Assembly: GCA_945936265.1 (NCBI GenBank)
Contig: CAMETB010000001.1
Coordinates: 1 to 33,335, forward strand
Source: an uncultured Clostridia bacterium
GTDB lineage: Bacteria > Bacillota > Clostridia > Oscillospirales > CAG-272
Direction: 5' to 3'
DNA length: 33,335 nucleotides
Shown here one piece after another: positions 10,618 through 27,889 of this stretch (position 1 is the stretch's first letter; every line of letters starts with the position of its first letter). The position numbers and the translations under genes were made by a program. The notes under the pieces were generated by a model, which saw nothing but the letters and a program-made list of their open reading frames with translations, was not told the origin of the DNA and did not search any database.

Positions 10618-11579
10618 TCACCACGTCATCATAATATGCGGGGTCGATCCGCCGTTTATTTCATTTGTTATCAGAGCATCAATAAGCAACGAAAAGGAGT
10701 ACCCGTCGTTTATAAAGAGTTTTGGGAACATACTTATGTCGGTAAAGCCGGGTATTGAATTTACCTCGTTAAACAACACTCCCCCGTCTTTTTTAACGAA
10801 AAAGTCCATACGGCAAAAGCCCTTGCATTCAAGTGAGTAAAACAGTTTCTGGCAGTAGTTTCTTATGGCGCGCTCGCTTTGCTTTTCTGTTTTTGCGGGG
10901 ATTATATAACTGACGGTTTTGTCCTTATACTTCGTGTCGTAATCGTAAAATTCACCAAAGTAGCCTATCTCGCCAAGGGTGCTTACTCTTATTCTGCCGC
11001 CGTCGCACATAACCGCCGCTTCCACCTCTTTACCGTCTACCGCTTCCTCGGCAATTACTCGGTCCGAGCAGTAAAAAGCTTTTTCAAGCGCGGTATCGAG
11101 TTCGCTTGCGTGGTTCACCTTTGAAATGCCCACCGATGAGCCTGAGCGGCATGGTTTTATAAACACGGGATAGCCGATTTTTGATATTTTTTCCCTCAAG
11201 GTCTCCCTGCTTGCAAGCTCTCCTTTATAAGCGACAACGCTTTTTGCACACGGGACACCGATATCTTCCGCCACGAGTTTGGTAAGATATTTGTCCATAC
11301 AGATAGCACTTGACAAATATCCGCAACCGACAAATTTTATGCCCGACATCTCAAGAGCGCCCTGTATTCTGCCGTCCTCCCCAAACGCGCCGTGTCGTTA
11401 AAAATCGCTCTTTCGTCACCGTCAAAAAGGTACCACTCGCCCTCTTTCGTTATGCCGAGCTTCAAAACCTCGTATTTCTCTTTGTCAATATGCGAAGCAA
11501 CCGCAAATGCGGAGTGCAGCGACACCTCGTATTCGTTCGATTTTCCGCCGAAAATCAGACACACCGTCGGCTTTTTCAA
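10618..11579 (-). pseudogene. ddl: D-alanine--D-alanine ligase, interrupted by a frameshift (true pseudogene or homopolymer sequencing error)
   Basis: The N-terminal piece (KKPTVCLIFGGKSNEYEVSLHSA...) runs to a stop at 11337. The C-terminal frame is open from 11397 and reads RHGAFGEDGRIQGALEMSGIKFVGCG...DKYLTK...FIKP..GSSVGISKV...EVNSIPGFT. The two frames meet next to the A5 run at 11400-11404. The probable start is TTG at 11579 (MKKPTV), preceded by GAGAGGTG. Confidence 0.85.
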
Positions 11580-11634
11580 AAGAAACACCTCTCAAAAACT
11601 GATTTTACCTTTTTTTAAAAGGTCTGACGATATA

Positions 11635-11663
11635 ATTATATGATACACCGCTCTTTTTGACAA
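11635..11663 (-). promoter_or_regulatory. Sigma-A-type promoter upstream of ddl-murD
   Basis: The minus strand reads TTGTCA - 17 nt - TATAAT. Confidence 0.5.
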
Positions 11664-11730
11664 AAATAAGGCCGCCACAAACCAAAATTTGCATCAGCCT
11701 TGATATTGTATAGAGTATTTTTTAATAATG

Positions 11731-12981
11731 TTATTTATCCTGCGCGACGGTGTTTTTCTTTTTCGGCTTCTCTATCTCTCCGGCAAGCTCGAAGCCTTTC
11801 TTTGCGGCAATTACCGCAATAATTTCGTTTATTACTGCCGCTGCCGCAACCGTGCCTTGCACTATGCCTGCAAGGTCTGAGCGTGTAGCCGAGAGCGTTG
11901 TACAGATAATTCCCGTAAAAACAAGGGAAACGCCCGAATGAGGCAAAAGGGTAAGCCCGAGATATTTCTGAACGGTGGGCGCCATATTTGTTGCCTTTGC
12001 GCCGAGCCTTGCGCCGAAGTATTTTCCGACGATACGTGCGGATATATAAACGAAGGTATAAATGCCTGCGCCGAGTATCAGGCGATAGTTAAGGGGTGCG
12101 CCGAGATCGACTATGGCGGCAAGCAACGAAATGCCAAGTATCGGAGAGAAATCAGCAGTGATTTCGGCAAGGCGCTCCTCGCTTACCATATTGCTGAAAA
12201 CCGCAGAGAATGAAACACCCATAAGCATATAATTGAGCGTTATTCCCGAGAGCAAAAACGTATTGAAAATCCAGCCGATAACCATTGTACAGGTAATTCC
12301 GAGAAGCAAGACGGCAAGCGTTTTTGCCTTGCCTTTTACACGTTTGAGCAAAAGCCCTACGGGCAAGCCGACAATAATTCCTATGGCAACGGGCAAAAGA
12401 ATCATAACTGGTATCATATAAAACGGCATGGAGCCGCCCGAAACCTCTCTTGCTATAAGAGAATTTACGGTAAAGAACACAATAATTCCGACTATATCGT
12501 CAAGTACCGCCATCGGCAAAAGAGTATCGGTAACGGGGCCCTTGGCGTGAAATTCATTGACTATTGATAAAGCGGGGGCGGGAGCTGTGGCAAGTGCAAT
12601 CCCTCCGAACGCAAAAGCAAGGTATATCGGTATATCGGAAAGTGAAAAGATTATTCCGAACACAAGGCTGACGACTGCAAAGGTGCCGAGCGACTGCGTC
12701 ATTGTTGTTATTACAAGCGCCTTGCCGTAGTTTTTAAGTTTTTTCCATACAAGTTCCGTGCCGAGCATCAAGCCGAAGGCACATTGCATCCACATTATAA
12801 TTACCTTGTACCAATCGGAGTCCATAAGTTCCGTCGGCATAAGTCCGACGGCGTGAGGACCGAATATCATGCCGACGATAAGCCAGCCGAGAATTGCGGG
12901 CATCCTGATTTTTGACATAAGTTTTCCCGCAATAAAGGCAATTATTAAAACCGCTATCCAGCGAAATAAATACAATACCAT
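11731..12981 (-). CDS. Cation:proton antiporter (Na+/H+ exchanger family) membrane protein
   Basis: This is a 416 aa, highly hydrophobic polytopic protein with about 11-12 predicted helices and a Gly/Ala/Ile/Leu-rich composition typical of CPA-type exchangers. Its ATG directly abuts the tetR stop, so the two are probably co-transcribed. Confidence 0.7.
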   Translation of the reverse strand: MVLYLFRWIAVLIIAFIAGKLMSKIRMPAILGWLIVGMIFGPHAVGLMPTELMDSDWYKVIIMWMQCAFGLMLGTELVWKKLKNYGKALVITTMTQSLGTFAVVSLVFGIIFSLSDIPIYLAFAFGGIALATAPAPALSIVNEFHAKGPVTDTLLPMAVLDDIVGIIVFFTVNSLIAREVSGGSMPFYMIPVMILLPVAIGIIVGLPVGLLLKRVKGKAKTLAVLLLGITCTMVIGWIFNTFLLSGITLNYMLMGVSFSAVFSNMVSEERLAEITADFSPILGISLLAAIVDLGAPLNYRLILGAGIYTFVYISARIVGKYFGARLGAKATNMAPTVQKYLGLTLLPHSGVSLVFTGIICTTLSATRSDLAGIVQGTVAAAAVINEIIAVIAAKKGFELAGEIEKPKKKNTVAQDK

Positions 12982-13587
12982 TTACTCTCTCTCCTCTGCG
13001 ATACCGTAGAGCATAAAGTCAAAAAGCTTCATCACGTTTTCCTCGTGTATCTTTACTCTTTTCCCAAGCTCGACACCCCTGTAAAGCGGGCTGCTGAAAT
13101 ATCCGTTAAACATAGTCTGCATAAGGCGGAAATACGAAAGGGCGTCGTCCTTCGTTATGCCTTTTCTTAAAACGAGCGTATCGACCGTCTTTTTATAAAT
13201 GCTTTCGTTGAGTTTGTTAAAACTATCGAGCGCTTCGCTTATTTCCTCTGACAGATGGCTTTGCGGCATAAGAAGCGCCTCAAAAAAGATATGCGCCTCG
13301 TTTGGAAACGCCTTAAAAAATTCCATACGGACGGACATATATTTTTCCAGGCTTTCCTCTCCGCCTCTTTTGCGGATATATTCCGTAAAAGTATCGCAAC
13401 TCTTTTTTAAGCAGAACAGGTAAAGACCGTCCTTGCCCGTAAAATTATGATAGATAAGTCCTTTGTTTATTCCCGACTTACATATATTATTTATCGTGCC
13501 GCCGATATAACCGTTTGTGCCGAACTCGTCCATTGCGACCCCGGTTATCTTTGAAACGGTGATTTTCGTTTTTTCGCTTTTCTTCAT
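12982..13587 (-). CDS. TetR/AcrR family transcriptional regulator
   Basis: The N-terminal HTH region reads ITGVAMDEFGTNGYIGGTINNICKSGINKGLIYHNFTGKDGLY. I prefer the start at MKKSEKTK (ATG 13587) because AAGGAG lies 7 nt upstream. The longer track ORF would run through the promoter. Confidence 0.8.
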   Translation of the reverse strand: MKKSEKTKITVSKITGVAMDEFGTNGYIGGTINNICKSGINKGLIYHNFTGKDGLYLFCLKKSCDTFTEYIRKRGGEESLEKYMSVRMEFFKAFPNEAHIFFEALLMPQSHLSEEISEALDSFNKLNESIYKKTVDTLVLRKGITKDDALSYFRLMQTMFNGYFSSPLYRGVELGKRVKIHEENVMKLFDFMLYGIAEERE

Positions 13588-13618: not shown

Positions 13619-13648
13619 ATTATAGCATAAATTGACCGTATAGTCAAT
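13619..13648 (-). promoter_or_regulatory. Promoter of the tetR-antiporter operon with an overlapping palindromic operator candidate
   Basis: The minus strand reads TTGACT - 17 nt - TATAAT. The perfect inverted repeat ATTGAC-N6-GTCAAT (13631-13648) covers the -35 box. Confidence 0.55.
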
Positions 13649-13708
13649 AATATATGCAAAAAACCGAAAAATGTTTTGGCTAAAAGTCAATGCGTTCATT
13701 TTTGCAAA

Positions 13709-13738
13709 TAAAAAAATGCCCCCTCGGGCATTTTTTAT
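13709..13738. terminator. Intrinsic terminator hairpin flanked by A- and T-runs
   Basis: AAAAAAATGCCC-CCTC-GGGCATTTTTTAT. The palindrome extends outward to TGCAAATAAAAAAA...TTTTTTATTTGCA. It sits immediately after the stop-equivalent of the guaA 3' remnant. Confidence 0.8.
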
Positions 13739-13835
13739 TTGCACTCGGTATGGGCGGTAGTGGCGTTACGTCATAGAGTATAAGAGATATTTTATCTCCG
13801 AAGTTATCAATCGCTCTCACCCGGAATGCATCTAT
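13735..13835 (-). pseudogene. Decayed remnant of the last ~30 codons of a GMP synthase (guaA) gene
   Basis: The minus strand reads ...AIDNFGDKISLILYDVT, then in a shifted frame ATTAHTECK*. Intact guaA ends ...IMDNFGDKISLVLYDVTGKPPATVEWE*. The distance from the core to the stop is 48 nt here and 52 nt in the intact gene, so the remnant is out of frame. Confidence 0.8.
13783..13808. repeat. Direct repeat copy 1 (26-nt exact match to 25887-25912)
   Basis: AGAGATATTTTATCTCCGAAGTTATC is identical at both positions and in the same orientation. Flanking similarity is partial, for example 13 of 17 matches on the stop-codon side. Confidence 0.9.
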
Positions 13836-13917
13836 AACTGCTTTTTATCCGCTGGCGGTTTTATTTGCGTTTAACAGCATGAAACGGATATACAAAACAT
13901 TTTGTTTTTAAGTTATT

Positions 13918-15024
13918 TCAAACTTCCTGAGACCCTGTTTCTTCATCCCTGACAGCGTCTAATGCTGCCCGGATAACCTTGTCCATATCAAGATACTCAT
14001 ATCGTCCCAGACGTCCGCCGAAAATAACATCGGGATGTAAAGCCGAAAGTTCCCGATACTTTGAATACAGCGCCATATTTTTTTTATCATTGACAGGATA
14101 GTAAGGATCCATACCCTTATGCCATTCTGCCGGATATTCACGACTTATAACTGTTGTTTTCTGCGTCCCGTATTCGAAATGTTTGTGTTCTATTATACGT
14201 GTATACGGTATGTCTGATGATGTATAATTCACCACGGCGTTCCCTTGATAATTTTCACAACATAAAATCTCTTCTTCAAAACGAACGCAACGGTACTCCA
14301 GCTCGCCATAACAGTAATCAAAATATTCATCTATCGGTCCGCTGTAAACCGTTTTAAGTGCATCAACCGATTTTTCAATCTGCTTATAATCGGTGTTCAG
14401 CAATACCTCGATACCATCCAGCAATTTATCGAAAATCACTGAATAACCGCCTATCGGAACGCCCTGATATATATCGTTGAAATAATTATTGTCATAGGTA
14501 AATCTTATCGGAATTCTGTCAATTATGAAGGCAGGGAGATCTTTGCATTTTCTGCCCCATTGTTTTTCGGTATATCCCTTGATTAGTTTCTCATATATAT
14601 CAGTTCCAACCAAGGATATCGCTTTCTCTTCCAGATTGTTGGGTGATGAAATTCCGGAATGCAGAATTTGTTCCGATATTATCTTTTTTGCCTCGGAAGG
14701 CGTTTTTATGCCCCACATTTTGCTGAATGTGTTCATATTGAAGGGCAGGTTGTAAATCTGACCCTTATATACGGCGAGCGGTGAATTGATAAAGTTGTTG
14801 AATTCTGCATATTTGTTTACATAATTCCATATCTCACTATCCGAAGTATGAAATATATGCGCGCCGTATTTATGAACATTTATGCCTTCCGTTTGCTCGG
14901 TATAGCAATTTCCTCCGATATGCGGACGTTTATCGATAACCAGACATTTTTTTCCTCTGTCCGTCATCTCTCTTGCAAATACGGCGCCGAATAATCCCGC
15001 TCCTACAACAAGATAATCGTACAT
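13918..15024 (-). CDS. glf: UDP-galactopyranose mutase
   Basis: It has the FAD-binding start MYDYLVVGAGLFGAVFA. Family-typical stretches include HIGGNCYT, HKYGAHIFHT, IIEHKHF, YYPVN and GRLGRYEYLDMD. Length is 368 aa. Confidence 0.9.
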   Translation of the reverse strand: MYDYLVVGAGLFGAVFAREMTDRGKKCLVIDKRPHIGGNCYTEQTEGINVHKYGAHIFHTSDSEIWNYVNKYAEFNNFINSPLAVYKGQIYNLPFNMNTFSKMWGIKTPSEAKKIISEQILHSGISSPNNLEEKAISLVGTDIYEKLIKGYTEKQWGRKCKDLPAFIIDRIPIRFTYDNNYFNDIYQGVPIGGYSVIFDKLLDGIEVLLNTDYKQIEKSVDALKTVYSGPIDEYFDYCYGELEYRCVRFEEEILCCENYQGNAVVNYTSSDIPYTRIIEHKHFEYGTQKTTVISREYPAEWHKGMDPYYPVNDKKNMALYSKYRELSALHPDVIFGGRLGRYEYLDMDKVIRAALDAVRDEETGSQEV

Positions 15025-15855
15025 TTATTTTCTCCTTAAACCCTTGACAATCTTTTTAGCTAAAAATCTTCTCTTGCTCTCAGGTGGGAAAAGTGCATCT
15101 GAAATTCTTTTTTTAGCCGAGCAGCAGATATCAAGCCGGGGAAGTTCTTTTATCAGGACTTTATTTTCGTAACAGTATGATATATATATTCCGGTAAATA
15201 TCTCCCCTAAATATCCGTCCGCTCTGTCAGACTGAAAATCTCCATGGGGCTTTTTCAGCAAATCAAATTCGTTCAATGCATTGAAAAGTATATCACAGTA
15301 CTCGTAAAAGTGAGCCTTATCCATAATAAACATATTACAAAAATATTGCCTTTGCTGTGATAAATACTTTTCAACAGTTTCAGAAAGATGCGGAGATTGC
15401 TTTTTAAGTATTTTTATGAACAAATTCAAATCATCGGCGTAATGATACTGGGAGCCGCAATAGTGTTCGCGAACCGTCAGGCCCATATTTTCACTACGCG
15501 GAGCTATAATTTCGTATCCGGAAATAAGTTTTTCCCATTGTTCCCCGGTGCCGAGAAGTCTTTCATCGGTCAATTGTGAAAATACAAGATACGGGCGCTT
15601 TATGCTGTCATCAATGCAAAAAAGCCTTCGGTAATGACAAAAGCCGTAATAATCGGCAGAAATGTTTTTCCAGGCATAGTAATGAGCTGTAAGTTCGCAA
15701 TATTCACGATTTTTTATCGATATATTTTCGCCATCATTATCGTGAATTACGCCGGCAATACACGGGTTCAAAGCCGCCCCGCATTGTATTGGATTAAATA
15801 AAGGCGGAATTATGCTGTACGAATTATGGCAACATAAGAACAAAGCGTTTTTCAT
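15025..15855 (-). CDS. DUF4422-type glycosyltransferase (probable galactofuranosyltransferase)
   Basis: Motifs PIQCGAAL, DNDGENISIKNREYCELTAHYYAWKN and YYGFCHYRRLF match my recollection of the DUF4422 family. It lies directly adjacent to glf. The start is uncertain. I prefer ATG 15855 (MKNALFL) over the track's TTG at 15882. Confidence 0.7.
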   Translation of the reverse strand: MKNALFLCCHNSYSIIPPLFNPIQCGAALNPCIAGVIHDNDGENISIKNREYCELTAHYYAWKNISADYYGFCHYRRLFCIDDSIKRPYLVFSQLTDERLLGTGEQWEKLISGYEIIAPRSENMGLTVREHYCGSQYHYADDLNLFIKILKKQSPHLSETVEKYLSQQRQYFCNMFIMDKAHFYEYCDILFNALNEFDLLKKPHGDFQSDRADGYLGEIFTGIYISYCYENKVLIKELPRLDICCSAKKRISDALFPPESKRRFLAKKIVKGLRRK

Positions 15856-15976
15856 AAGCGAAAATTTCTCCGTACCGGACAATATGCTTAATAAGTTACA
15901 TACTGTATGGTTTAATTACACAAATCAGGACTCCGAACACAAAATCAACGGGTCAAAAAATATCATTTTAACTGTT

Positions 15977-17071
15977 TTATTGAACTTTAATCCAACTTAT
16001 AAGCTTTCTATATGCCTGTTCCAATCCTACTTGAGGCTTCCACCCGAGAGAACAAAGCTTGGTATTATCCAAAAACAGTTTTGTGTTCGGAGCGTATCCG
16101 TATTTCATTGAATCCGAAGGAATGTCAATAACAACTTTTATTTTATCCTCCGCAATATTATGAGCAACCATCCGAGCCATTTCTATTATAGTTGTATGGC
16201 TTGCCGGATTGCATATATTGTATGCTTCTTTGTACTTGCCTTTTTTCAACAATATAAGAATTGCTCTTATTGCATCAGATGTATATACATAGTTACCCTC
16301 TGACAATCCATTTGTGTGAAGGACTATATCGTTTCCGTCGATAACGCTCCTTGCGAATTGAGCAAACACCCTGTTTTCTGTCGGGAGAATCCCCGCACCG
16401 AAGGTCTGTGCAAGCCTTGCCGTTGTTACATTGACTCCGTATTGCGCCGAATAGGCGTTGCACAAGCACTCACATGCGCGCTTGCTTTCCGGATAACAAC
16501 TTCTGACGGAGGAAAGATCAATATAGCCAAGCGACTTTTCATCTGTCATCTCATTTTTTTCGATGTTTCCGTATACCTCCATCGAAGAAAGATATACCAT
16601 TGACGCGTTATTATCACGGGCAATTTTGAGCAATGAATCGGTACTGTTGAACGCCGAAACAAGAACAGATACCGGGAATGTTACCATTTCCTTTGAGTTT
16701 GTTATGGCTGCCGTATGGATTATAAAGTCGACTTTATCCGAAAATTCAAAATTTCCGCTCCCTAAATCTTCCGTTACCACAAAAGAAAGCGCCGTATTGT
16801 CTGATTCCTGTGAAAAAACAGACTTTGCTTTTTCTATATTTCTGACAACAGCATAAATCTTAATTTTCAGATCGTATTTTCTGTTGTAGTAAAGCAGCGT
16901 TTTGACCATGAGCGATCCTATAAGCCCTGTGCTACCCGTTATGAGAAACGAAGAACCGTAAAAATCTTTCAATCTCAATCCGTCAGATTCAACAGACTCA
17001 AAATCCTCTTCCAGAATTTTATCTTGCAAAGACAAATCAATAGCCATTGATTTGAGAATCCTCCCTTGCAT
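15977..17071 (-). CDS. Extended SDR (NAD-dependent epimerase/dehydratase/reductase family)
   Basis: It has ITGSTGLIGS (GxxGxxG), SSMEVYG and YPESKRACE (YxxxK). The start is ambiguous (TTG 17074, ATG 17071 or ATG 17047). Every option overlaps the stop of the upstream cytidylyltransferase gene. Confidence 0.75.
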   Translation of the reverse strand: MQGRILKSMAIDLSLQDKILEEDFESVESDGLRLKDFYGSSFLITGSTGLIGSLMVKTLLYYNRKYDLKIKIYAVVRNIEKAKSVFSQESDNTALSFVVTEDLGSGNFEFSDKVDFIIHTAAITNSKEMVTFPVSVLVSAFNSTDSLLKIARDNNASMVYLSSMEVYGNIEKNEMTDEKSLGYIDLSSVRSCYPESKRACECLCNAYSAQYGVNVTTARLAQTFGAGILPTENRVFAQFARSVIDGNDIVLHTNGLSEGNYVYTSDAIRAILILLKKGKYKEAYNICNPASHTTIIEMARMVAHNIAEDKIKVVIDIPSDSMKYGYAPNTKLFLDNTKLCSLGWKPQVGLEQAYRKLISWIKVQ

Positions 17072-17765
17072 CAAGAATCGCTCTCATAATATAAAAATCT
17101 TCCGGCGTGGTTATTTTAATGTTATCCTTCGGGCCTTCCGTCAGGTGAAGTTCTTTGCCGTAAAATTTCATCATTGAACAGGAATCGATAAAATCGTTCA
17201 ACCCGGATTTCAAAGACTGACGATGCGCTTCAAGAATATCTTTAAGCCAGAAACTCTGCGGGGCGCGTGCGAGTTTACAATCTTTGCGTGGAGGCACTGA
17301 TAATATTCTGCCGTCTTCGTCTGCCATCAGAACCGTTTCCTGTGCCTTAACACAAGTGATGCAACTCCCGTATTTAAGCACACAATCAATGTTGTCATCA
17401 ATAGTCTGAGAGGTAATGAGAGGTCTTACTCCATCATGGATAAGAACGATGCATTTATCTTTGTCCTCCCCTGCAATCTCCTCCGCCGCACATAAGCCGA
17501 AGTAGATCGACTGCTGACCGGAAGTGCCGCCCTTCTTTATCATCTTAACTTTCCTTATGTTGTACTTGTCAAGCAACATGTTCAGATGATCAATCCATCC
17601 GTCAACGCATACTACAACTATTGCATCTATGCGTGGGTTGTTCTCAAACACTTTCAATGTGTGGATTATTATCGGTTCTCCGTGTACTTCCAAAAACTGT
17701 TTAGGTCTTTCCTTGCTGTTCATTCTGGCACCTACACCGCCTGCAAATATAACCGCTATATTCAT
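17037..17765 (-). CDS. IspD/TarI-family cytidylyltransferase (CDP-alditol or related CDP-activated donor synthesis)
   Basis: The N-terminus MNIAVIFAGGVGARMNSKERPKQFLEVHGEPII is the AGGxGxRM...KQF signature of IspD/TarI enzymes. Length is 242 aa. Confidence 0.8.
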   Translation of the reverse strand: MNIAVIFAGGVGARMNSKERPKQFLEVHGEPIIIHTLKVFENNPRIDAIVVVCVDGWIDHLNMLLDKYNIRKVKMIKKGGTSGQQSIYFGLCAAEEIAGEDKDKCIVLIHDGVRPLITSQTIDDNIDCVLKYGSCITCVKAQETVLMADEDGRILSVPPRKDCKLARAPQSFWLKDILEAHRQSLKSGLNDFIDSCSMMKFYGKELHLTEGPKDNIKITTPEDFYIMRAILDAREDSQINGY

Positions 17766-17775
17766 CTTTTTCTCC

Positions 17776-20247
17776 CTATTTCTTCATCTTCAAACGACGT
17801 TTGATTTCCTGTGTTATTCTCTCTGAATTATCCGGTCCGTTGGCTGTCTCATCAAAGAAATACTTCAATACTTCTTTTCGCCACCCGGCGTCCTTCTGAG
17901 GATCTTCAAGATATTTTCCCACTTCTTCCATTGTTTCTTCCCAGGTGTAAGTTTTAGGACCGGGAGTTGCTTCCATATAATCGAGATTCATATCGGTATC
18001 ATTTTTACAAAATGTTTCATAGTCATAGCAAAAGAACACTGCTGCTTTGTCAAATAATAAGAAATCGTATGCTATGGAAGAGTAATCGGAAATTATTACT
18101 GCGTAATCGTTTATTCTCGGATAAATATCCTTTTCATCATCAAATTTTATTCTGTCATATTTTTTTATAACCGGTTTGATTAATTTCGAATAATTGCGCC
18201 ATGTGTTCGGATGAAGACGAAGGACAAATACCGAATCGTATTTTTCCATGGTTTCCTGAATCATACTGACACTGTCAAGAAAATTTTTAACAAGCGACTT
18301 CTCGTCTTCCTCTTTCATACGATAAGTCGGCGCATATATCACATAATTTTTTGAAGGTGAACTCAATGAATTATATACAGGCAAATTTCTCGGATGACCT
18401 GCCATGAAATAACTTGACTCCGGTATGTTCCATCTCTTTCCGAACATATCTATCCGTTCCTGACCGGGACAAACAAACAGAAAATATTTCTCGAACAATT
18501 CTCTGAAATAAGCATGCCTGAAATACTTGATTTTCTTTATAAATCTCGTGCCTGCGGAATCTCCCGGCTGTGCAATTATGTCGGTGCTGTACATTACCCC
18601 GGCAACATCGGTATTTTTAACTTCCTTGCCATTGCCCATAGATTTAAGACCGACGCCATGCCAGAGTTGGACTATCTTCGTTCTGTCACTTAATCCGTGC
18701 AGCGGATTATAATCCGTCATTTTGAAATGGTCGGTAACAGCCACAGAACAACGAGCCATCCTCCATGCCCCCGCAATCGTATTGTTCATAGAGACAGGGT
18801 AACCGTTTGCCTTCAGTTTCTTATAGAGTTCTTTGCTTTTTGTAAACCAAATGGCCTTTATTTCCGGGTGGTTTTTCACTACATATTCATAGTAATACTT
18901 TGCATTGTCGAAAAATTTGTTTCCTGCGTAAAACGAAGTAAATGCCCATCTCTTTTTGCTCTTCGGTATGAGACAATTCAGCCAGTATGCAATGAATTTG
19001 GAAAAATTATAAACTTTCCTTGAAAACTTGCACTTTTTCAGTCTGGAAATAAATTTCTTTATTTTCGCTTTTGTCAATGACAATCTGGTATATAACTTTA
19101 CTATAGGCTTGAAAAGATGCATAAATTTCGAGTTTCTTGCGACAATTTTATTACCTTCCCAGCCATAAATTCTTGTCATCCTTCTGCTGTCGTTATAAAA
19201 TGACAAATATGCGTTTAAGGAAATTACGCCGGCATCCGGGAAAGTTATGAAAAAATCCGCAATTTCTTTTTTCATATTGTTCTTGACCAGCACCTGCAGA
19301 TACAAACTTGCCTCGTATTTAATGCGATTCTCTATCTGAACAACGCCGTATCCGCCATACCATCTGATGAAAAACTGTCGTAATCCCGTCAACATTATCA
19401 GATACTGCGGTCTCGTATACAAAAAGTTCTCGTCCATGCTCTTGTATGTTGTAAGAGAGTTGTCGTTTTTTCTGTATACAGCCATTACTTTGTCTTCCAG
19501 GTACACCATGCCCCGACGTCCCATATGCAAAAGGAACATCGGCAAATCGCCTATATACTTGTTTCTGTAAAACCAATCGGGAAGAGGGTTAAGATCTTGA
19601 TTTACACGCAGCATTACAGCGAGTGGCGTAGGATTTCCCCCACACTCCATAAATGTCTTTACATCATAATAATTGTTTTTTGATTTTTTAAATTCCGGAA
19701 TACACTCCGGCATATAAATGTTTCCATCTTTTGCTCTCTTATAATACGTTTCAAGAAAATGATTTTTCGGCAGCGTCATCAGAACATTGCAGAAACATCC
19801 CCCTAAATCGGGATGCGCAGCCAAGTAATCATATTGATATTGGAGTTTGTTTTCGTCGGTCCAGTAATCATCCCCGTCACAAAATGCGACAAAAGGTGAC
19901 GCAGCAACTGCCCTCTCGCAAAGGTCTCCGAAATTTCTCATACTTCCTACATTTTTACGTCTTAAAACAGGTACTATCAACCCCGGATATCTTTTTGCAT
20001 ATTGTCTTACAATATCTGTCGTTCCGTCAGTACTGCAGTCGTCACCGACAAGTATCTGAAACCTGAAATTAGTCTTCTGGCATACAAGGCTGTCAAGGCA
20101 CTCTTTTATATATTCCTTCTGATTATAAGTAACGGTTACAATTGAAACCATTATCGGATTGACTTTTTTACGAACCGTTGTCTTTTTTTTCTTTGTTAAT
20201 TTCTTTTTGTTGCTTTTCTTATTTGTTTTTGACATATCCAATACCAA
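17776..20247 (-). CDS. Bifunctional GT2 glycosyltransferase / TagF-like CDP-alditol phosphotransferase
   Basis: The N-terminal GT2 domain reads VSIVTVTYNQKEYIKECLDSL...LVGDDCSTDGTTDI...CDGDDYW. The C-terminal Glyphos_transf-type motifs are IVQLWHGVGLK, VIYAPTYR, VLRLHPN and ISDYSSIAYDFLLFDKAAVFFCYDYE. The start is uncertain (TTG 20247, ATG 20235 or ATG 20151). Confidence 0.8.
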   Translation of the reverse strand: MVLDMSKTNKKSNKKKLTKKKKTTVRKKVNPIMVSIVTVTYNQKEYIKECLDSLVCQKTNFRFQILVGDDCSTDGTTDIVRQYAKRYPGLIVPVLRRKNVGSMRNFGDLCERAVAASPFVAFCDGDDYWTDENKLQYQYDYLAAHPDLGGCFCNVLMTLPKNHFLETYYKRAKDGNIYMPECIPEFKKSKNNYYDVKTFMECGGNPTPLAVMLRVNQDLNPLPDWFYRNKYIGDLPMFLLHMGRRGMVYLEDKVMAVYRKNDNSLTTYKSMDENFLYTRPQYLIMLTGLRQFFIRWYGGYGVVQIENRIKYEASLYLQVLVKNNMKKEIADFFITFPDAGVISLNAYLSFYNDSRRMTRIYGWEGNKIVARNSKFMHLFKPIVKLYTRLSLTKAKIKKFISRLKKCKFSRKVYNFSKFIAYWLNCLIPKSKKRWAFTSFYAGNKFFDNAKYYYEYVVKNHPEIKAIWFTKSKELYKKLKANGYPVSMNNTIAGAWRMARCSVAVTDHFKMTDYNPLHGLSDRTKIVQLWHGVGLKSMGNGKEVKNTDVAGVMYSTDIIAQPGDSAGTRFIKKIKYFRHAYFRELFEKYFLFVCPGQERIDMFGKRWNIPESSYFMAGHPRNLPVYNSLSSPSKNYVIYAPTYRMKEEDEKSLVKNFLDSVSMIQETMEKYDSVFVLRLHPNTWRNYSKLIKPVIKKYDRIKFDDEKDIYPRINDYAVIISDYSSIAYDFLLFDKAAVFFCYDYETFCKNDTDMNLDYMEATPGPKTYTWEETMEEVGKYLEDPQKDAGWRKEVLKYFFDETANGPDNSERITQEIKRRLKMKK

Positions 20248-20264
20248 TCTTCAATTTGTTTATT

Positions 20265-21542
20265 TTAAACTCTCCAGTCCAAAAGCGCTTCCACTTCGCT
20301 GCAATCAAAAACAGGAATGCCGCAGACACGGCTCACATCATAACGCTCGCTGAAAGCGTCATCGATAAATATTGCAGACTTTTGTACTATATATGATGAC
20401 TTAGGTTTATCGTTGTCAATAACGATAATATCACTGAAAAGTTCCTCGCTGATATGAAAATCCTTAAGGCTCGAATGGATATCTTTACTGTGCCGGCTTA
20501 AAAGCACGATGTTCTTACCCTGATTTTTCGCCTGATAAAGAAACATCATAAGAATTGTATTTACTTTATCTCCCAGATGAACCGTGTCATCAAAATCCAC
20601 ATAGACCCAGGAATATTCGATATCTGTTTTATAACGGCTTATAAATGCACGGTCGACCGTTATACTGTACTTATTGTCAATAACCGTTACGGGAACGCCT
20701 TCAAAACAAAATAAAGTCATCATCGGATAGTTAAGCCCGAGATTTCGGGTTATTCCCATTGTCCCCGCAATTCTGGGGGCAACCTCCATCAACCGATATT
20801 CTCCGGAATCATTTCTTTTCAGCTGGAAAAACCATGCACCTTTGAAATGAAGACGACTGTTGATAATTTTTGCAATTTGCTTTACCTTTTCATCTTCGGG
20901 CAAAATCTCGCTGCTTACGCTTATACCTGTCCTTATCCGTTTTCTGTTTCGCATTTTAAAGCACAATAAATTTCCGTCATTGTCTGTGAAACAGTCAACA
21001 GTATATTCTTCACCGCTGAGATACTCACATATTATTCTCCCGGGGTTTTCATTCAATGCATATTTAAGTTCCGCCGCGTCGTTCACTTTCAGAGCGCCCT
21101 GCGCACCTTGTCCGACATCCGGCTTTACAAACACGGGAAATTTCTTAACCTCACTCTCAGAGTATGTATCCGGCACAAAATCCTCGTCTTTGAAAAGCCT
21201 GTATGTTTTTGATTTTGAACGGCAGATCTCCGTTGTGTAAAGATCAGCGGAAACAATCACAGCGTTTATTTTATCTGCATTTTGCACAAGAAACAGTTGA
21301 ATATCATCGTACGCCGGATATATGTAATCTATTTCATACTCCTTAATCACTTCATTGAGTTTTTCAATAAAATCCGGAGAATCAAAATACGGCACCCCGG
21401 TAATGCAATTTGAAAAAACATATTCGCTGTGATTAGGCGTACTGGTCAACCCGTATACTTTGAAATGCTTGGAATATTTCAGTGCGTTATTTATTTCAAG
21501 TCCTATTTCGGAACCTGCGGGAAAAACAAGTACGTTTTTCAT
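20265..21542 (-). CDS. ATP-grasp ligase fused to a small HAD-like phosphatase domain
   Basis: Residues 1 to about 300 form the ATP-grasp domain (FPVFVKPDVGQGAQGALKV, ICEYLSGEEYTVDCF, LMEVAPRIAGTMG). The C-terminal ~110 aa carry HAD motifs: I VDFDDTV (DxDxT), II VLLSR, III DKPKS, IV FIDDAFSE. Confidence 0.7.
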   Translation of the reverse strand: MKNVLVFPAGSEIGLEINNALKYSKHFKVYGLTSTPNHSEYVFSNCITGVPYFDSPDFIEKLNEVIKEYEIDYIYPAYDDIQLFLVQNADKINAVIVSADLYTTEICRSKSKTYRLFKDEDFVPDTYSESEVKKFPVFVKPDVGQGAQGALKVNDAAELKYALNENPGRIICEYLSGEEYTVDCFTDNDGNLLCFKMRNRKRIRTGISVSSEILPEDEKVKQIAKIINSRLHFKGAWFFQLKRNDSGEYRLMEVAPRIAGTMGITRNLGLNYPMMTLFCFEGVPVTVIDNKYSITVDRAFISRYKTDIEYSWVYVDFDDTVHLGDKVNTILMMFLYQAKNQGKNIVLLSRHSKDIHSSLKDFHISEELFSDIIVIDNDKPKSSYIVQKSAIFIDDAFSERYDVSRVCGIPVFDCSEVEALLDWRV

Positions 21543-22513
21543 CGGTTTTTGCTCCTAATTTCAAATTTTATCTTTCTTATTTTCTCCGAAAGTTTTGTCA
21601 TAATCGCGACAAATACCGCAATCGGTGATATGGCAATGAATTTAATTTTTCCTACGCGGGATATTACTTGCTTTAAGCATTCTGAATTTGCAGGGCTCTT
21701 GCGGATAAGTGATTTTATCAATGCACTGCCGCATATTTTCAGTTTTCTTGTCCTGAAACAAATTTTTTTATTTTCAATATCCGACGCTAATTGTGATAAT
21801 TTTTCATTTATGTCGTAATCAACAACGGAATTTTCATTTTTATAAATTTTGTCTGTAACGCTCCCGTCGGAAAATTTACGATAGCAACCGAGTATTCTGC
21901 TCAATCGATAAAAATTTCCCTTCATCGAATACAACATTACAATGGTTCTGTCTGAAATCTGGGGATGTACCTCGTACATATTTCTAAGTTCCGGATACTC
22001 GCTGAAAATATTACGGTACATCATCGTACTTGTCTGACCCGGTAAAAATATCCCCTTAAAACTCTTGAATGTAAATTTCCGGTTATAAGATATCCACGGC
22101 AAAAAGCCATCACCCGAGAGCCTTCCGTCCTCTCCGATCAAAGTACAATCCCCGCAGCAGCCTATAAATCGAGGATGCGTTTCCATAAACTCAACCTGTG
22201 AGATAAGTTTATATTTATCACACCAATAATCGTCGCCTTCCAACGTTGCCACATACTTTCCGGAAGCTGCCGCAAGCAACAGATATAAATTTTTCGATGC
22301 ACCTATGTTCTTTTCCCTGACAAACAATTTTATTTTGTCGGGAAACCGCGACCTGAACTCTTCAAGTATGTCGGTTGTACCGTCGGTCGAGCAATCGTCG
22401 CCTATCAATATTTCATAATCAACATCACCCTGCTGAGACAGCACGCTGTTAACCGCTTCGGAAATATATTTTCGTTGGTTATGCGCGATAATCAATACAG
22501 ATACCAAACTCAT
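21539..22513 (-). CDS. GT2 family glycosyltransferase with a C-terminal hydrophobic segment
   Basis: Motifs are VSVLIIAHNQRKYISEAVNSVLSQ, LIGDDCSTDGTTDI and LEGDDYW. The C-terminus contains FIAISPIAVFVAIM. It is paralogous to the GT2 half of the 823 aa protein. Confidence 0.8.
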   Translation of the reverse strand: MSLVSVLIIAHNQRKYISEAVNSVLSQQGDVDYEILIGDDCSTDGTTDILEEFRSRFPDKIKLFVREKNIGASKNLYLLLAAASGKYVATLEGDDYWCDKYKLISQVEFMETHPRFIGCCGDCTLIGEDGRLSGDGFLPWISYNRKFTFKSFKGIFLPGQTSTMMYRNIFSEYPELRNMYEVHPQISDRTIVMLYSMKGNFYRLSRILGCYRKFSDGSVTDKIYKNENSVVDYDINEKLSQLASDIENKKICFRTRKLKICGSALIKSLIRKSPANSECLKQVISRVGKIKFIAISPIAVFVAIMTKLSEKIRKIKFEIRSKNR

Positions 22514-22514
22514 G

Positions 22515-23630
22515 TCAAGCCTTACAACACCGTAGAATCGTATCGCATATCCTGTCTATATCTTCGAAAGAAAGTTCGGCATAGAGCGGAAGCGTGAGAA
22601 CGTTCTCCGAGATTCTTTTTGCTACAGGTGTATCCGCCGGACTGCATTTTTCCCGAATCGCCGTAAAATCAGATGTTATGGGATAGAAATATTTCCTTGC
22701 AAAAATATTTTCGCTCTCGAGAGCCTTTGCTATATCGTCGCGGTTTTTCCCCAATATCTTTTCATCGAAAACAACAGGAAAATAAGAATAGTTGTAAACC
22801 GTGTTTTCTTTTTCTTTACAGAGAGTTATTCCGTCTATTCCGTCGAGGCGTTCGCGATATCTGCCGACGCATGCCTTCCTCTTATCGATGTATTCGTTTA
22901 TATGGCGCATATTACAAATTCCCATCGCGGCCTGAAATTCGTTCATTTTTGAGTTTGTACCAAGAACGCTTACATCATCCTCTCCGGAAAATCCGAACTG
23001 GCACAGAGCGTGAATCCTATCCTTGAGATTGCTGTCTTTAAACGCAAGGCAACCTCCCTCAATCGAATTGAACACTTTTGTAGCATGAAAACTGAACATT
23101 GTAATGTCTCCGAGAGAGGCTACACTTCTTCCGTCGACTTTTTCTCCGAACGCATGTGCACCGTCATATATCACTTTTAAATTATACTTGGATGCCAGCT
23201 GCTCTATCTTTTTATAATTGCAAATATTGCCGTAAACATGTACCGGCATAATGGCGCTAGTTTTTTCCGTAATAAGTGATTCGATTTTATCTGCGTCAAT
23301 GGTATAATCGTTCTCATCGATATCGCAAAATACAGGCGTAAGCCCTTTTCTCATAATCGCCAAAGTCGTGGACGCAAAGGTAAAAGGGGTCGTAATTACC
23401 TCTCCCGTAAGTTCAAGAGCATCAATTGCTATCTCAAGCGCCTGATGCCCGTTTGAAAACAAATGTATATTTGGTATATCCAGATATTTAACGAGTTGCC
23501 TTTCCAATTCCTGATGCTTCTCTCCGAAGTTGGTCAGCCAATGGCTGTCCCAGATTGATCGGATTTCCTTACAATATTCGTCAAAAGGAGGCATTGAAGA
23601 CATTGTAACCCGAATGACATCTTTACTCAT
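22515..23630 (-). CDS. DegT/DnrJ/EryC1/StrS family PLP-dependent sugar aminotransferase
   Basis: The PLP lysine motif is FSFHATKVFNSIEGG. Length is 371 aa. It lies directly downstream of rfbA-rfbB. An AAGGAAAG ribosome-binding site precedes ATG 23630. Confidence 0.85.
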   Translation of the reverse strand: MSKDVIRVTMSSMPPFDEYCKEIRSIWDSHWLTNFGEKHQELERQLVKYLDIPNIHLFSNGHQALEIAIDALELTGEVITTPFTFASTTLAIMRKGLTPVFCDIDENDYTIDADKIESLITEKTSAIMPVHVYGNICNYKKIEQLASKYNLKVIYDGAHAFGEKVDGRSVASLGDITMFSFHATKVFNSIEGGCLAFKDSNLKDRIHALCQFGFSGEDDVSVLGTNSKMNEFQAAMGICNMRHINEYIDKRKACVGRYRERLDGIDGITLCKEKENTVYNYSYFPVVFDEKILGKNRDDIAKALESENIFARKYFYPITSDFTAIREKCSPADTPVAKRISENVLTLPLYAELSFEDIDRICDTILRCCKA

Positions 23631-23659
23631 TTATTTCACTTTCCTTTTTATGTAGTATG

Positions 23660-24679
23660 TTATCTGTTCCCGTACATTTTTGCGTAATAGTCCTTATATT
23701 CGCCGTTGATGATATGTTCCCACCACTCACGGTTTTCAAGATACCACTGAATAGTCTTCTGAATCCCGTCTGCAAATTTTGTTTCCGGGAGCCATCCAAG
23801 CTCGTTGTGTATCTTTGTCGGGTCAATTGCGTATCGTCTGTCGTGTCCTTTGCGATCAGTTACATGTGTTATAAGGCTCTCGGGTTTATCAAGTGCCTTA
23901 CATATTATCCTGACGATATCGATGTTTCTCATCTCATTGTGCCCGCCGATATTATACACTTCTCCGACACGACCTTTATGAATTATCATATCAATCGCTC
24001 GACAGTGATCTTCGACATACAGCCAGTCCCGCACATTCAGTCCCTCTCCGTAAACCGGTAAAGGCTTATCATGCAACGCATTGGCTATCATTAACGGAAT
24101 GAGTTTTTCCGGAAACTGATACGGCCCGTAGTTATTTGAACAGCGAGAGATTGTTATCGGTAAACCGTACGTCCTGTAATATGCCTGCACAAGTAAATCA
24201 GCGCTTGCTTTGGATGCGGAATACGGTGAACTTGTGTGTAACGGAGTGGACTCAGTAAACAGCATATCCGGTCTGTCAAGGGGCAAATCCCCATACACTT
24301 CGTCCGTTGATACCTGATGAAAACGCTCTATGCCGTATTTCCGGCAGGCATCCATCATAACGGAAGTTCCCACTATATTGGTATTCAAAAATACGCCCGG
24401 ATTTTCAATTGAACGGTCAACATGACTTTCCGCGGCAAAGTTTATGACAACATCAGGATGCTCGTTTTCGAAAACGTTGAAAACAGCATCGCGATCGGTT
24501 ATATCAACTTTGTAAAACTTAAAATTCGGGTTGCGTGTCAGGGGTGCAATGGTTTCAAAATTCCCTGCATAAGTGAGACAATCAACACAGATTATCTTAT
24601 AATCCGGATGATTTTTCGCCATATAATGAACAAAATTTCCTCCGATAAATCCGGCTCCACCGGTCACTATGATCTTCAT
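23660..24679 (-). CDS. rfbB: dTDP-glucose 4,6-dehydratase
   Basis: Motifs are [23 protein letters not shown] and YSASKASAD, with a C-terminal WW...EY-rich tail typical of RmlB. Length is 339 aa. Confidence 0.9.
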
Positions 24680-25554
24680 TGACTATCCTCCGCCAACTTC
24701 ATAATATACTGTCCGTACTCGGTCATTTTCATCTCTTCTCCGAGTTTTTTCAACTGTTCCGTCGTTATAAATCCACGTCTCCATGCAATCTCCTCGATGC
24801 ATGAAATATAAAAGCCCTGCATATCCTGAACGCTCTGTACAAACTCAGCGGCTTTCAGCATTCTTTTCGGTGAGCCTGTATCAAGCCATGCCATTCCGCG
24901 CCCCATGAGAATTACATTAAGTTTTCCTTCCGACAAATACCGGTTGTTTATCGATGTTATTTCAATCTCACCGCGAGCAGAAGGCTCCACTTTTTTTGCC
25001 ATATCAACAACTTTGTTATCATAAAAATACAACCCCAGAACCGCATAATTCGATTTTGGTTCCGCAGGCTTTTCCTGTATGGAAATAACTTTGTTGTTCT
25101 TATCAAACTCTACAACGCCGAATTCACGCGGATTTGCAACCGGGTAACCGAAAACGGTTGCCCCTCCGTTTTCAACCTGTGCCATCGCAGTTCTCAGATA
25201 TGTACTGAGTCCTTGTCCGTAAAATACATTGTCTCCGAGAACAAGGCACACGCTGTCGTTCCCGATGAAATCTTCACCGAGAATAAATGCATCTGCAAGT
25301 CCGCGGGGCTTGTCCTGAACTTTATATTCGATATGTATTCCTATACGACTCCCGTCTCCCAACAGTTTTCTGTAATTCGGAGTATCGTCGGGAGTGGATA
25401 TTACGAGAATATCTTTTATTCCGGCAAGCAGCAGCACAGACAACGGATAATATATAAGCGGCTTATCATATATTGTCAATAACTGTTTTGAGACCGAAAT
25501 TGTGCTTGGATAAAGGCGGGTCCCTTTGCCCCCGGCAAGAATTATACCTTTCAC
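24676..25554 (-). CDS. rfbA: Glucose-1-phosphate thymidylyltransferase
   Basis: Motifs are [31 protein letters not shown] and [11 protein letters not shown] prefer the GTG start at 25554 (MKGIILAGG) with GAGAGG upstream over the track's GTG at 25572. Confidence 0.9.
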
Positions 25555-25684
25555 AGCAGTTAAACCTCTCACATCTTTTTTATCAGCATAATATACAATA
25601 GCTTCCGGAGTCAGATTATTGCATATTTCTGCAATTTTCAGAAATATTCAACCTGTTTTCAGTGGCTGATATTCCTAAGTTATA

Positions 25685-25713
25685 ATTATAACTTATTTAT
25701 TTCTTTATGTCAA
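25685..25713 (-). promoter_or_regulatory. Consensus sigma-A promoter of the glycopolymer operon
   Basis: The minus strand reads TTGACA - 17 nt - TATAAT, a perfect match to both hexamers. This gives a leader of about 120 nt before rfbA. Confidence 0.65.
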
Positions 25714-25834
25714 CATATTTCGATTCGTTTGTGCAAATTTCCAAATAAATCCGTGTCGTTTTATGTTGATAAACGGCATTTGTAAAACGTCATTAAAAAG
25801 CTGCTCTACATTGTTCAGGCGCTTTTGTAAATTT

Positions 25835-27712
25835 TCATTCCCACTCGACGGTGGCGGGAGGTTTACCCGTTACGTCGTAGAGGACGAGAGATATTTTATC
25901 TCCGAAGTTATCCATTATCTCTTTGGTTGCGGCTTTGAGTTCGTCTATCGGGAAATCGACGCCCGGCATTGCGCTGCGCGCGGTCATAAAGTCGCTTGTG
26001 CATACGGCTCTCATTGCTACAGAGAAACGTTTGCCCTCGTCGCAGGAGATGGGCAGCAAAACTGCGAAGCACTGAGCAGTCTTTTTGTTCATCAGGTGCT
26101 TTGTCACTATGGCGTCAAGTTCTCTTAAAAGTTCGGCGTTTTCGTGATTTATGTGCATAGGGGTGCAAAAAGTTGCTCCCTGCATTTCGTTCTTATTGGT
26201 ACAGTAGGTGACTCTGTTTATATAGTCAAGTTTATTCGGAATAAGTTTTGCAAGCGAATAAAGATTTTCAAAATCGCAGTCAAGAGCATCCTTGCCCTTT
26301 ACGTTGTTATAGAGTATAGCCATACTTCTGTACGAACGGTTATCGCCCTGAACGCCTACCGAACGGATAGGCGCTATATCGCTGTCGTACGGATAACCCG
26401 ACACAACCTCGTCAAGTTTGTTTATCTTGTCCGCATCGTTAAAAGTGCCTATATAGTCCGTACATATCATACGGACGCCAAGCCCGGGTCCGGGGAACGG
26501 CTGGCGGGACGCTATTTCCTCGTCAAGACCGAGCATCCTTGCAACTTGCCTTACCTCGTCCTTGTGCCAATCCCAGTTGGTTTCTATGACATGGCCTTTA
26601 TCCCTTAAAGTCCTTATTACTCCGACGTCGTTATGATGCGTTTTTATCTTGTTTGCATATCCGCTGACGTCGGGGTTGCCCGATTCTATAAGGTCGGGGC
26701 GCAAAGTTCCCTGGGCGAGAAATGCGGTATCGAAATCGAGATTGAGTTTTTTTGCCGCCTCCTCAGTGACAACGAAGAACATATGGCCTATTATCGCTCT
26801 TTTTTTCTCCGGCTCACAGGTTTGACAAAGCGGCTTATACTCCACTCCGTCAATTGTTAAGGGTGTGTTGAAAAACTCGTCCTCGGCGTTTATCCTTTGC
26901 ATATTTACAAGTCCGAGTTTTGCGAGATTTTCGCATATAAGATCGCTCTCGTTCTTTCTCATCATACCGTGGTCAATATGAATACCGTAAACCTGATCGG
27001 GACGGAGCGCCTTTGTAAGAAGTGCCGCGGTAACTGCCGAGTCAACGCCACCGGATACCAGAACGACGACTTTGCCGTTTTCGCCGACGCGCTCTCTTAT
27101 CATTCTTACCGACGTTTCTATTCTGTCCTCAAGGGCATATACCTCTTTCAGCGCGCAGACCTTGCGAAGAAAGTTTTCAAATATTTTCATTCCGTTTACC
27201 GTCGGCTCAACCTCGGGATGAAACTGAACGCCTGTTATCTTCTTTTCTCCATTCCATATTCCCGCAACGACGCCCTCGGTGGAAGCGACAACCCGGAAGC
27301 CGTCTGCAACCTTGGCAACCGCATCTCCGTGGGACATGAGAACGTATTCCTTGTCAGAGAGCCCGTCAAATACGGGGCAGGTATTGTCGATATCTATGAG
27401 TATCTGACCGTACTCCGTCTTTACCCCGGGTTTTACCACTCCTCCGAAGTACTCATTGATAAGTTGCATACCGTAACATATCCCGAGCATCGGCTTGCCG
27501 AGAGAAAATATCCTTTTATCGTATTTCGGCGCTCCGTCGCTCCACACGCTTGACGGACCTCCGCTGAGTATTATGGCGTTGTGATCCTTTATTTTATCGG
27601 GATCGACTCCGAGCGGAAATATATCCGTGTATACGCCGAGTTCCCTCACCTTGCGGTCTATAACCTTTGTGTACTGTCCGCCGCAATCAAGTATTGCAAC
27701 CTTTTCTGTCAT
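25835..27712 (-). CDS. guaA: Glutamine-hydrolysing GMP synthase, long (eukaryote-like) form
   Basis: The GATase domain has ILDCGGQYTKVIDRKVRELGV, GICYGMQ and QFHPEV. The ATP-PPase P-loop is VLVSGGVDSAV. Later motifs are AQGTLRPDLIES, IKTHHND and VGVQGDNRSY. The C-terminus is YDVTGKPPATVEWE. At 625 aa it is about 100 aa longer than the usual bacterial enzyme. Confidence 0.9.
   Translation of the reverse strand: MTEKVAILDCGGQYTKVIDRKVRELGVYTDIFPLGVDPDKIKDHNAIILSGGPSSVWSDGAPKYDKRIFSLGKPMLGICYGMQLINEYFGGVVKPGVKTEYGQILIDIDNTCPVFDGLSDKEYVLMSHGDAVAKVADGFRVVASTEGVVAGIWNGEKKITGVQFHPEVEPTVNGMKIFENFLRKVCALKEVYALEDRIETSVRMIRERVGENGKVVVLVSGGVDSAVTAALLTKALRPDQVYGIHIDHGMMRKNESDLICENLAKLGLVNMQRINAEDEFFNTPLTIDGVEYKPLCQTCEPEKKRAIIGHMFFVVTEEAAKKLNLDFDTAFLAQGTLRPDLIESGNPDVSGYANKIKTHHNDVGVIRTLRDKGHVIETNWDWHKDEVRQVARMLGLDEEIASRQPFPGPGLGVRMICTDYIGTFNDADKINKLDEVVSGYPYDSDIAPIRSVGVQGDNRSYRSMAILYNNVKGKDALDCDFENLYSLAKLIPNKLDYINRVTYCTNKNEMQGATFCTPMHINHENAELLRELDAIVTKHLMNKKTAQCFAVLLPISCDEGKRFSVAMRAVCTSDFMTARSAMPGVDFPIDELKAATKEIMDNFGDKISLVLYDVTGKPPATVEWE
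25887..25912. repeat. Direct repeat copy 2 (26-nt exact match to 13783-13808), inside the guaA 3' end
   Basis: The same 26-mer, AGAGATATTTTATCTCCGAAGTTATC, encodes DNFGDKIS of the intact guaA. Confidence 0.9.
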
Positions 27713-27743: not shown

Positions 27744-27772
27744 ATTCTATCATAAATAGTCGTTAATATCAA
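27744..27772 (-). promoter_or_regulatory. guaA promoter
   Basis: The minus strand reads TTGATA - 17 nt - TAGAAT with a TGn extended -10. The leader is short and ends in GGAGG before the ATG. Confidence 0.5.
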
Positions 27773-27806
27773 TATTATTTTTTATTTTGTCGCCATTATT
27801 TTGGCG

Positions 27807-27835
27807 TTGACAATCGTTTTCAATGTGATTATAAT
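27807..27835 (+). promoter_or_regulatory. glmS promoter
   Basis: TTGACA - 17 nt - TATAAT, a perfect consensus, divergent from the guaA promoter. Confidence 0.65.
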
Positions 27836-27889
27836 AGTAGTGTCGGAGTAAACACGGAGGACTTACTTTTGACATGCCGTGGCTATGGA

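Follow-up and report, generated by a model that had tools for sequence, protein, structure and literature searches.

A probable displaced guaA 3' end at the border of a glycan-biosynthesis island in uncultured gut Clostridia

The window in this study is the whole stretch of 33,335 nucleotides that was analysed. Within it, ten co-oriented genes lie between guaA, which ends in a TGA stop codon at 25835-25837, and a tetR-antiporter pair (Table 1). Judged by its Pfam domains, this block of genes forms an operon for cell-wall decoration of the glycan or teichoic-acid type. Most of it has a GC content of 0.37-0.42, as compared to 0.44-0.47 in the flanks. A consensus promoter lies upstream of its first gene, rmlA, and transcription of guaA may also run on into the operon.

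Table 1. Features of the locus, with positions numbered along the window.
Feature	Positions	Strand	Basis
Inserted island, 12,023 nt, ten co-oriented genes	13812-25834	-	Pfam, GC, absence from sister-lineage contigs
Intact guaA, 625-aa glutamine-hydrolysing GMP synthase	25835-27712	-	Pfam GATase and GMP_synt_C
Left duplicate: last 81 nt of guaA, exact core 25887-25912 inside	25835-25915	-	Alignment, repeat search
Consensus promoter upstream of rmlA, guaA-proximal: TTGACA, 17-nt spacer, TATAAT	25685-25713	-	12/12 hexamer matches; consensus match only
rmlA	24676-25572	-	Pfam
rmlB	23660-24679	-	Pfam
DegT aminotransferase	22515-23630	-	Pfam
GT2 glycosyltransferase	21539-22513	-	Pfam
ATP-grasp protein	20265-21542	-	Pfam
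GT2 and CDP-glycerol glycerophosphotransferase fusion, 823 aa	17776-20247	-	Pfam
IspD-like cytidylyltransferase	17037-17765	-	Pfam
Epimerase/reductase	15977-17074	-	Pfam
DUF4422	15025-15882	-	Pfam
glf	13918-15024	-	Pfam
guaA 3'-end remnant, 77 nt, exact core 13783-13808, TAA 13735-13737	13735-13811	-	Alignment; frameshifted, non-functional
Strong hairpin with A-runs and T-runs, bidirectional intrinsic-terminator shape	13703-13743	.	Folding: -22.8 kcal/mol, z = -6.3
tetR promoter: TTGACT, 17-nt spacer, TATAAT, upstream TG	13619-13647	-	Promoter scan and direct reading
tetR (12982-13587, 201 aa) and Na+/H+-exchanger family antiporter (11731-12981)	11731-13587	-	Pfam

A Pfam scan of the ten ORFs of the island, together with the main ORFs of its flanks across the 33-kb window, found no integrase, excisionase, resolvase, transposase or relaxase. 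Non-coding DNA at the island ends amounts to only 262 nt and 105 nt, leaving no room for a decayed recombinase gene. A search based on glf returned neither a donor of the island nor a second copy of it, the best glf relatives being at most 70% identical and none of them syntenic. The sequence that follows the guaA stop codon in the window has no significant similarity to the intergenic DNA of relatives, and the idea that it is a decayed copy of the terminator was likewise rejected as not significant. Folding of positions 25795-25834, after guaA, gave only a weak hairpin (-7.2 kcal/mol, z = -1.4).

At the other end of the island, the gene order is: terminator, tetR promoter, tetR, antiporter, ddl, a Mur ligase gene and three M42 peptidase genes (Pfam). 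The terminator was not listed by a simple terminator scan and was detected by folding. The tetR promoter overlaps an inverted repeat, ATTGAC-N6-GTCAAT, which is probably the TetR operator. An exact-protein look-up of the window antiporter returned nothing on record. The ddl gene of the window (10618-11588) is broken by a 121-nt frameshifting deletion near 11394 into two ORFs of 83 aa (N-domain) and 243 aa (C-domain), while Ddl has 360 amino acids in the relatives checked (L081, L084, L093 and L110); the split gene is either a strain-specific pseudogene or an assembly error. Elsewhere in the window, a glmS ribozyme (27886-28039, plus strand) lies upstream of glmS and overlaps a 94-codon ORF (27750-28034), which is probably spurious because of this overlap, and an FMN riboswitch (30032-30144, plus strand) precedes an ECF transporter S-component gene (30266-31012).

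Between glf and the terminator lies a short sequence that had been described preliminarily as an out-of-frame copy of the guaA end sharing an exact 26-nt segment with the intact gene. The repeat search agrees: the window contains exactly two copies of the 26-mer AGAGATATTTTATCTCCGAAGTTATC (13783-13808 and 25887-25912), both on the plus strand, thus forming a direct repeat. Within the 26-mer is an inverted repeat, GAGATA-AAA-TATCTC. The remnant (77 nt) and the guaA end (81 nt) can be aligned over their whole length, with 60/77 positions identical, 17 substitutions in total and a single 4-nt gap in the remnant. This deletion explains why the distance from core to stop is 48 nt in the remnant (13782-13735) and 52 nt in guaA (25886-25835), and the copy is indeed frameshifted. 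On the minus strand, the remnant translates as MRAIDNFGDKISLILYDVTPLPP..., to be compared with the C-terminal end ...EIMDNFGDKISLVLYDVTGKPPATVEWE* of guaA; it reads ...AIDNFGDKISLILYDVT, and the frame shifts after that. The substitutions are unevenly distributed, with none in the 26-nt core, four in the next 19 nt (all synonymous or V-to-I) and 12 in the last 29 nt, where the universally conserved PPATVEWE codons are missing.

Both flanks of the core had been thought to be partly similar, and this holds for one of them only. On the stop-codon side, the local alignment score was 25 against a shuffle maximum of 20 (n=2000), which is significant homology. On the 5' side, the score was 14 against a shuffle mean of 14.2, and the homology suggested by VIDALR and PIDELK was rejected as not significant in shuffles.

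The 26-mer might have matched by chance, belonged to a dispersed repeat or arisen in assembly, and similarity might have been confined to it. No third copy was present in the window even when up to 3 mismatches were allowed; 100 shuffles contained none, and none is expected by chance. An exact search of the metagenome collection gave no match, and in the scanned loci of close relatives (L001, L081-L118) the 26-mer was seen only in guaA ends and in the remnant. Together with the significant homology of the tail and the recovery of the same structure in 16 independent contigs from NCBI, ENA and Logan (see below), these results reduce such an origin to a practically negligible probability.

The comparison with other genomes was made in two rounds. 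A first scan covered one genome per GTDB species, 80 loci around guaA (L001-L080). It contained a single close relative, L001 (guaA 98% identical at the amino acid level); the 79 others were at most 74% identical and without synteny, and no att-type repeats of the guaA end were seen among the 80 species. Further contigs, from many independent assemblies, were then reached through proteins close to the window TetR and guaA, and these fall into three arrangements. The TetR homologues of 60-71% identity (L097-L108) have unrelated surroundings and were uninformative on the empty site. In a more distant species (L109, guaA 91% identical at the amino acid level), unrelated genes follow guaA.

The arrangement of the window was found in 16 conspecific contigs (L081-L096; NCBI MAGs, ENA and Logan, including pig-gut samples), whose TetR proteins are 99-100% identical. 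The remnant with a perfect core is present in 16/16, and glf and other island genes are present wherever a contig extends upstream. The island is fixed in this species. A TetR homologue, P0001, is 99% identical, and the order of tetR and the antiporter gene in the window is matched in L081-L096 and in the sister-lineage contig L115. In one MAG, GCA_051868035.1, the tetR and guaA proteins are encoded on one 56.7-kb contig with accessions 11 apart, which fits ten island genes between them.

A second arrangement is the empty site. The preliminary description had predicted that some relatives would have guaA followed directly by this terminator and the tetR-antiporter pair; absence of any guaA-tetR adjacency from all relatives would have spoken against an insertion. 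Such an adjacency was found in two independent sister-lineage assemblies, L117 (Logan) and L115 (NCBI MAG GCA_051867955.1), in which an intact guaA end is followed by the terminator, the tetR promoter, tetR and the antiporter gene. In L117 the junction is ...GTCGAGTGGGAATAAAAAAATGCCCGAGAGGGCATTTTTT, followed by the tetR promoter and tetR, and L115 is the same; the guaA end ...GTCGAGTGGGAATAA is directly joined to AAAAATGCCCGAGAGGGCATTTTTT. The junction between remnant and terminator in the window, ...GAGTGCAAATAAAAAATGCCCGAGGGGGCATTTTTTT, is in the same register as that of the intact guaA in L117 (TAAAAAATGCCC in the window versus TAAAAAAATGCCC in L117). The tetR region of L117 is only ~88.5% identical to that of the window, and its guaA tail has no k-mer path in common with a genome of the window arrangement at the junction. 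L117 thus represents a separate lineage and not an assembly chimera.

The third arrangement is the commonest one found among relatives (L110-L114 and L118, six contigs, guaA 97-98% identical at the amino acid level). Here guaA is followed by the same terminator and then by ddl. A relic of the tetR promoter/operator with a 10-nt gap, TTGACTGAACGGT...TAATACCGAC, persists (L110 4240-4525; also L111-L114 and L118), indicating that the tetR-antiporter pair was deleted there and not that it was never present. Going by this relic, the third arrangement looks like a secondary deletion of tetR and the antiporter gene from the empty-site arrangement. The tetR promoter itself is kept in L115-L117.

None of eight sister-lineage contigs (L110-L115, L117 and L118) contains the island. 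The window guaA and the sister-lineage guaA proteins are 97-98% identical. The same terminator directly follows the intact guaA in L110-L114 and L117. From this conserved position, the hairpin is read as the native guaA terminator, which now ends the island operon. Beyond the insertion, the tetR-antiporter pair is the native neighbour. The TAA of the remnant directly adjoins this hairpin and its T-run, and the earlier remark that the remnant abuts a strong terminator as a real gene end would is borne out by reading and folding alike. With collinear homology to the 3' end, disabling mutations and a position where the ancestral gene ended, the remnant is a guaA pseudogene fragment.

These results make it very probable that positions 13735-13811 are the original guaA 3' end, displaced by the entry of the 12-kb glycan-biosynthesis island into the final ~80 nt of this gene. 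Since the register of remnant and terminator is the same as in L117, and since L115 and L117 provide the empty site, the remnant is the displaced end and the 12 kb between the repeats are the insertion. In a simple insertion between direct repeats, the resident copy is the one contiguous with native downstream DNA, which again identifies the remnant as the resident. The insertion of an element into the gene end with supply of a replacement end, as proposed from the window alone, is thereby supported.

The ancestral order was guaA, terminator, tetR promoter, tetR, antiporter and ddl, to which the lineage of the window added the 12,023 nt inside the guaA tail. The following course of events is proposed: incoming DNA bearing its own copy of a guaA tail would have undergone recombination with resident guaA within or close to the 26-nt block; the recombined guaA would have consisted of the resident 5' part and the incoming tail, with the full reading frame kept; the resident tail, still attached to its terminator, would have been left 12 kb away; and this tail, free of selection, would have lost 4 nt and the PPATVEWE codons, while the neighbouring terminator and tetR promoter remained intact, the former now closing the island operon. 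Divergence at four-fold sites is 0.26-0.33 between the lineages and 0.06-0.08 within the species. On this scale, the 17 substitutions in 77 nt are roughly as many as neutral decay would have produced after the sister lineage split off. Such a level agrees with an insertion close to the base of the species, at a time when its strains had not yet diverged.

The decay of the remnant is not uniform, however, with 4 substitutions in 45 nt (the core and the next 19 nt) against 12 in the last 29 nt (Fisher P ~0.001). Neither of the recombination mechanisms considered below explains this unevenness, which could be caused by gene conversion from guaA or by a clustered mutation event. It might also mean that the central 45 nt are not the footprint of a crossover and have been held guaA-like by gene conversion or by selection, for example as an operon 3' UTR or as part of a 46-codon ORF at 13680-13820. 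In agreement with such upkeep, the core and the next 19 nt are without polymorphism across the 16 strains, in which the flanks vary. However, at a strain divergence of 4-5%, the absence of polymorphic sites from 45 nt is not significant, the RNA structure of the remnant is not unusual (z = -0.03), and the equivalent stretch in another contig, L116, looks far more degraded. We consider maintenance unlikely, and it would bear on upkeep alone, leaving the origin by insertion in place.

Other variation was seen downstream of guaA. In L116 (positions 1-62), the sequence before the same terminator and tetR is neither an intact guaA nor the window remnant, and consists of a different stretch, CTCCGAGCGATACGCAAATATCTCT. 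Its similarity to the guaA tail has a shuffle p of ~0.02, and the contig ends there; it may be a more decayed guaA tail left by a second, independent insertion at the site. No second junction at the 26-mer was seen in the loci examined. A motif, GCCGAAAARCCCAGT, is common to L001 (3865-3992), L043 (11876-12000) and L059 (11888-12010), where it lies within ~35 nt of the guaA stop and is followed by arm-like short direct repeats, such as TTTGATAACAC, which occurs twice. No Rfam family matches the motif downstream of the L001 guaA, nor does any match the remnant of the window. A scan of viral contigs for this 15-nt motif gave 61 raw matches; only that in L157 extended into a longer match (29 nt to the motif region, at 11540-11760), beside a tRNA 3' half and similar repeats. 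The motif region may be the end of a family of integrative elements that also uses guaA.

In a distant species, L048 (11852-12700), a single 235-aa ORF, which we guess from its sequence to be methyltransferase-like, follows guaA; both 15-nt direct repeats of the guaA end (GTCGAGTGGGAATGA) and a repeated CGGATGTG flank it. This looks like a one-gene insertion at the guaA stop. An 18-nt repeat ~1 kb downstream of guaA in L051 and L052 was rejected as an att-type repeat, because it corresponds to the conserved IEWE* end of another gene, located directly after the long guaA, that encodes a further GMP-synthase ATP-pyrophosphatase subunit (326 aa; L051 5328-6308, L052 4224-5204). Among the L001-L080 loci with a complete guaA end, 10 contigs stop within 410 nt after the guaA stop, versus ~3 that stop as close upstream, a hint that, in many Clostridia MAGs, the sequence beyond guaA varies or is repeated.

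How the island entered can be judged less firmly than that it did. The attL/attR-like pair suggested by the preliminary description stands as a description of the structure, but not as evidence for a site-specific mechanism, as the island and the window contain no mobility gene. Site-specific integration at an attB in guaA, by a recombinase that acted in trans or has been lost, is thus a plausible mechanism, though not a proven one. Several observations favor it: a perfect run of at least 26 nt would have a probability of only 0.005-0.008 under uniform decay; homology stops sharply 5' of the core; the core has the inverted repeat given above; tyrosine integrases in Firmicutes are documented to use the guaA 3' end as a target (PMC4844618, PMC4701971); and other inserts appear to follow guaA in L001, L043 and L059. 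Against it, the stretch of identity is located 51-76 nt before the stop and not at the exact gene end.

The same structure could have been made by host recombination instead of an integrase, from a fragment of a congener that already carried the guaA tail and the island. We give this alternative a little less than an even chance. The tail now on the window guaA is ~90-94% identical to sister-lineage tails, and this native-like sequence implies a congener as donor and suits homologous exchange at least as well. It would suit a RecA-dependent single crossover of a circularised fragment, or illegitimate recombination anchored by homology, with guaA as the homologous anchor and an illegitimate joint at -77. 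The sharp 5' edge of the repeat would then be the illegitimate joint, and the 26-nt identity would reflect a sequence invariant in the genus. In fact, every guaA examined in the genus has the same 26-mer, so its identity at the time of insertion needs no att site. The lack of mobility genes from the whole window is in line with host recombination, as are the plain deletions at the locus (tetR and the antiporter gene in L110-L114 and L118; 121 nt of the window ddl). However, it leaves unexplained why a perfect core lies beside a tail decayed to 59% identity, and it requires a donor with the island already beside guaA, of which none was found. Within the displaced-end reading, we consider site-specific and homology-driven insertion roughly equally weighted, with at most a slight lean to the former.

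A more specific version, which we regard as a long shot, is that the island is a satellite without a recombinase of its own, and that a guaA-specific recombinase encoded elsewhere in the genome or on a helper element inserts and swaps cell-wall glycan operons at the palindromic core GAGATAAAATATCTC. If so, site-specific exchange of cassettes at guaA would let gut Clostridia switch the glycans on their surface. With the present sequence, any excision at the core would link guaA to the frameshifted tail.

For the displaced-end reading, the consequences are as follows. The gain of a cell-wall glycan operon by an uncultured Clostridia species of the pig and animal gut can be dated, and it can be delimited to the single nucleotide. 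Within the genus, the DNA downstream of guaA is variable, with at least three clear arrangements and two further variants. The locus also serves as a worked example of how a displaced gene end marks the boundary of an island in the absence of an integrase. It carries the classic signature of an island border, namely a duplicated target-gene end as a direct repeat, an empty site and atypical GC, and is a clean but ordinary scar. No new mechanism is revealed. There is ample documented precedent both for remnants of gene ends at island borders and for guaA as a target of integration.

Elements that target guaA are known. Tn5801-like elements have 11-bp repeats exactly at the 3' end of guaA, next to int(Tn5801) (PMC4844618), and ICE_SmiB6_guaA is a further case, from streptococcal ICEs whose repeats measure 12-54 bp (PMC4701971). 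The island resembles these elements in its target gene and target end, in the flanking repeats derived from the guaA 3' end and in leaving guaA intact (PMC4844618, PMC4701971). However, they carry a tyrosine integrase and conjugation genes, and their short repeats (11 bp in Tn5801) cover the exact gene end, whereas the island has only a glycan operon, no recombinase or transfer gene, and a duplication of ~80 nt with the identical block 51-76 nt before the stop. Membership of the Tn5801 family is excluded because the position and length of the repeat differ and there is neither an 11-bp repeat at the exact guaA end nor an adjacent int gene. Direct repeats derived from the target (26 nt, in a duplication of ~80 nt) and an empty attB in relatives (L115 and L117) are features shared with integrative elements; the locus does not qualify as an autonomous element of this kind, because no integrase or recombinase is present, or visibly was once present, at either end.

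Surface-polysaccharide loci are exchanged through conserved flanks, such as the pneumococcal cps locus between dexB and aliA and the E. coli O-antigen locus between galF and gnd. Like the island, these are glycan cassettes of atypical GC located between conserved housekeeping flanks and variable among close lineages. However, they are replaced by double crossover and have no duplicated end of a flanking gene, which the guaA island does have. Integrase-less islands and decayed integrative elements, flanked by a remnant of the target gene, share with it a lower GC, a position at the 3' end of a housekeeping gene, a direct repeat and fixation in one lineage with absence from its sisters, although they usually keep at least an integrase pseudogene, none of which is detectable in the guaA island. 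The locus is best classed as a genomic island that lacks an integrase and is bordered by the displaced remnant of a gene end.
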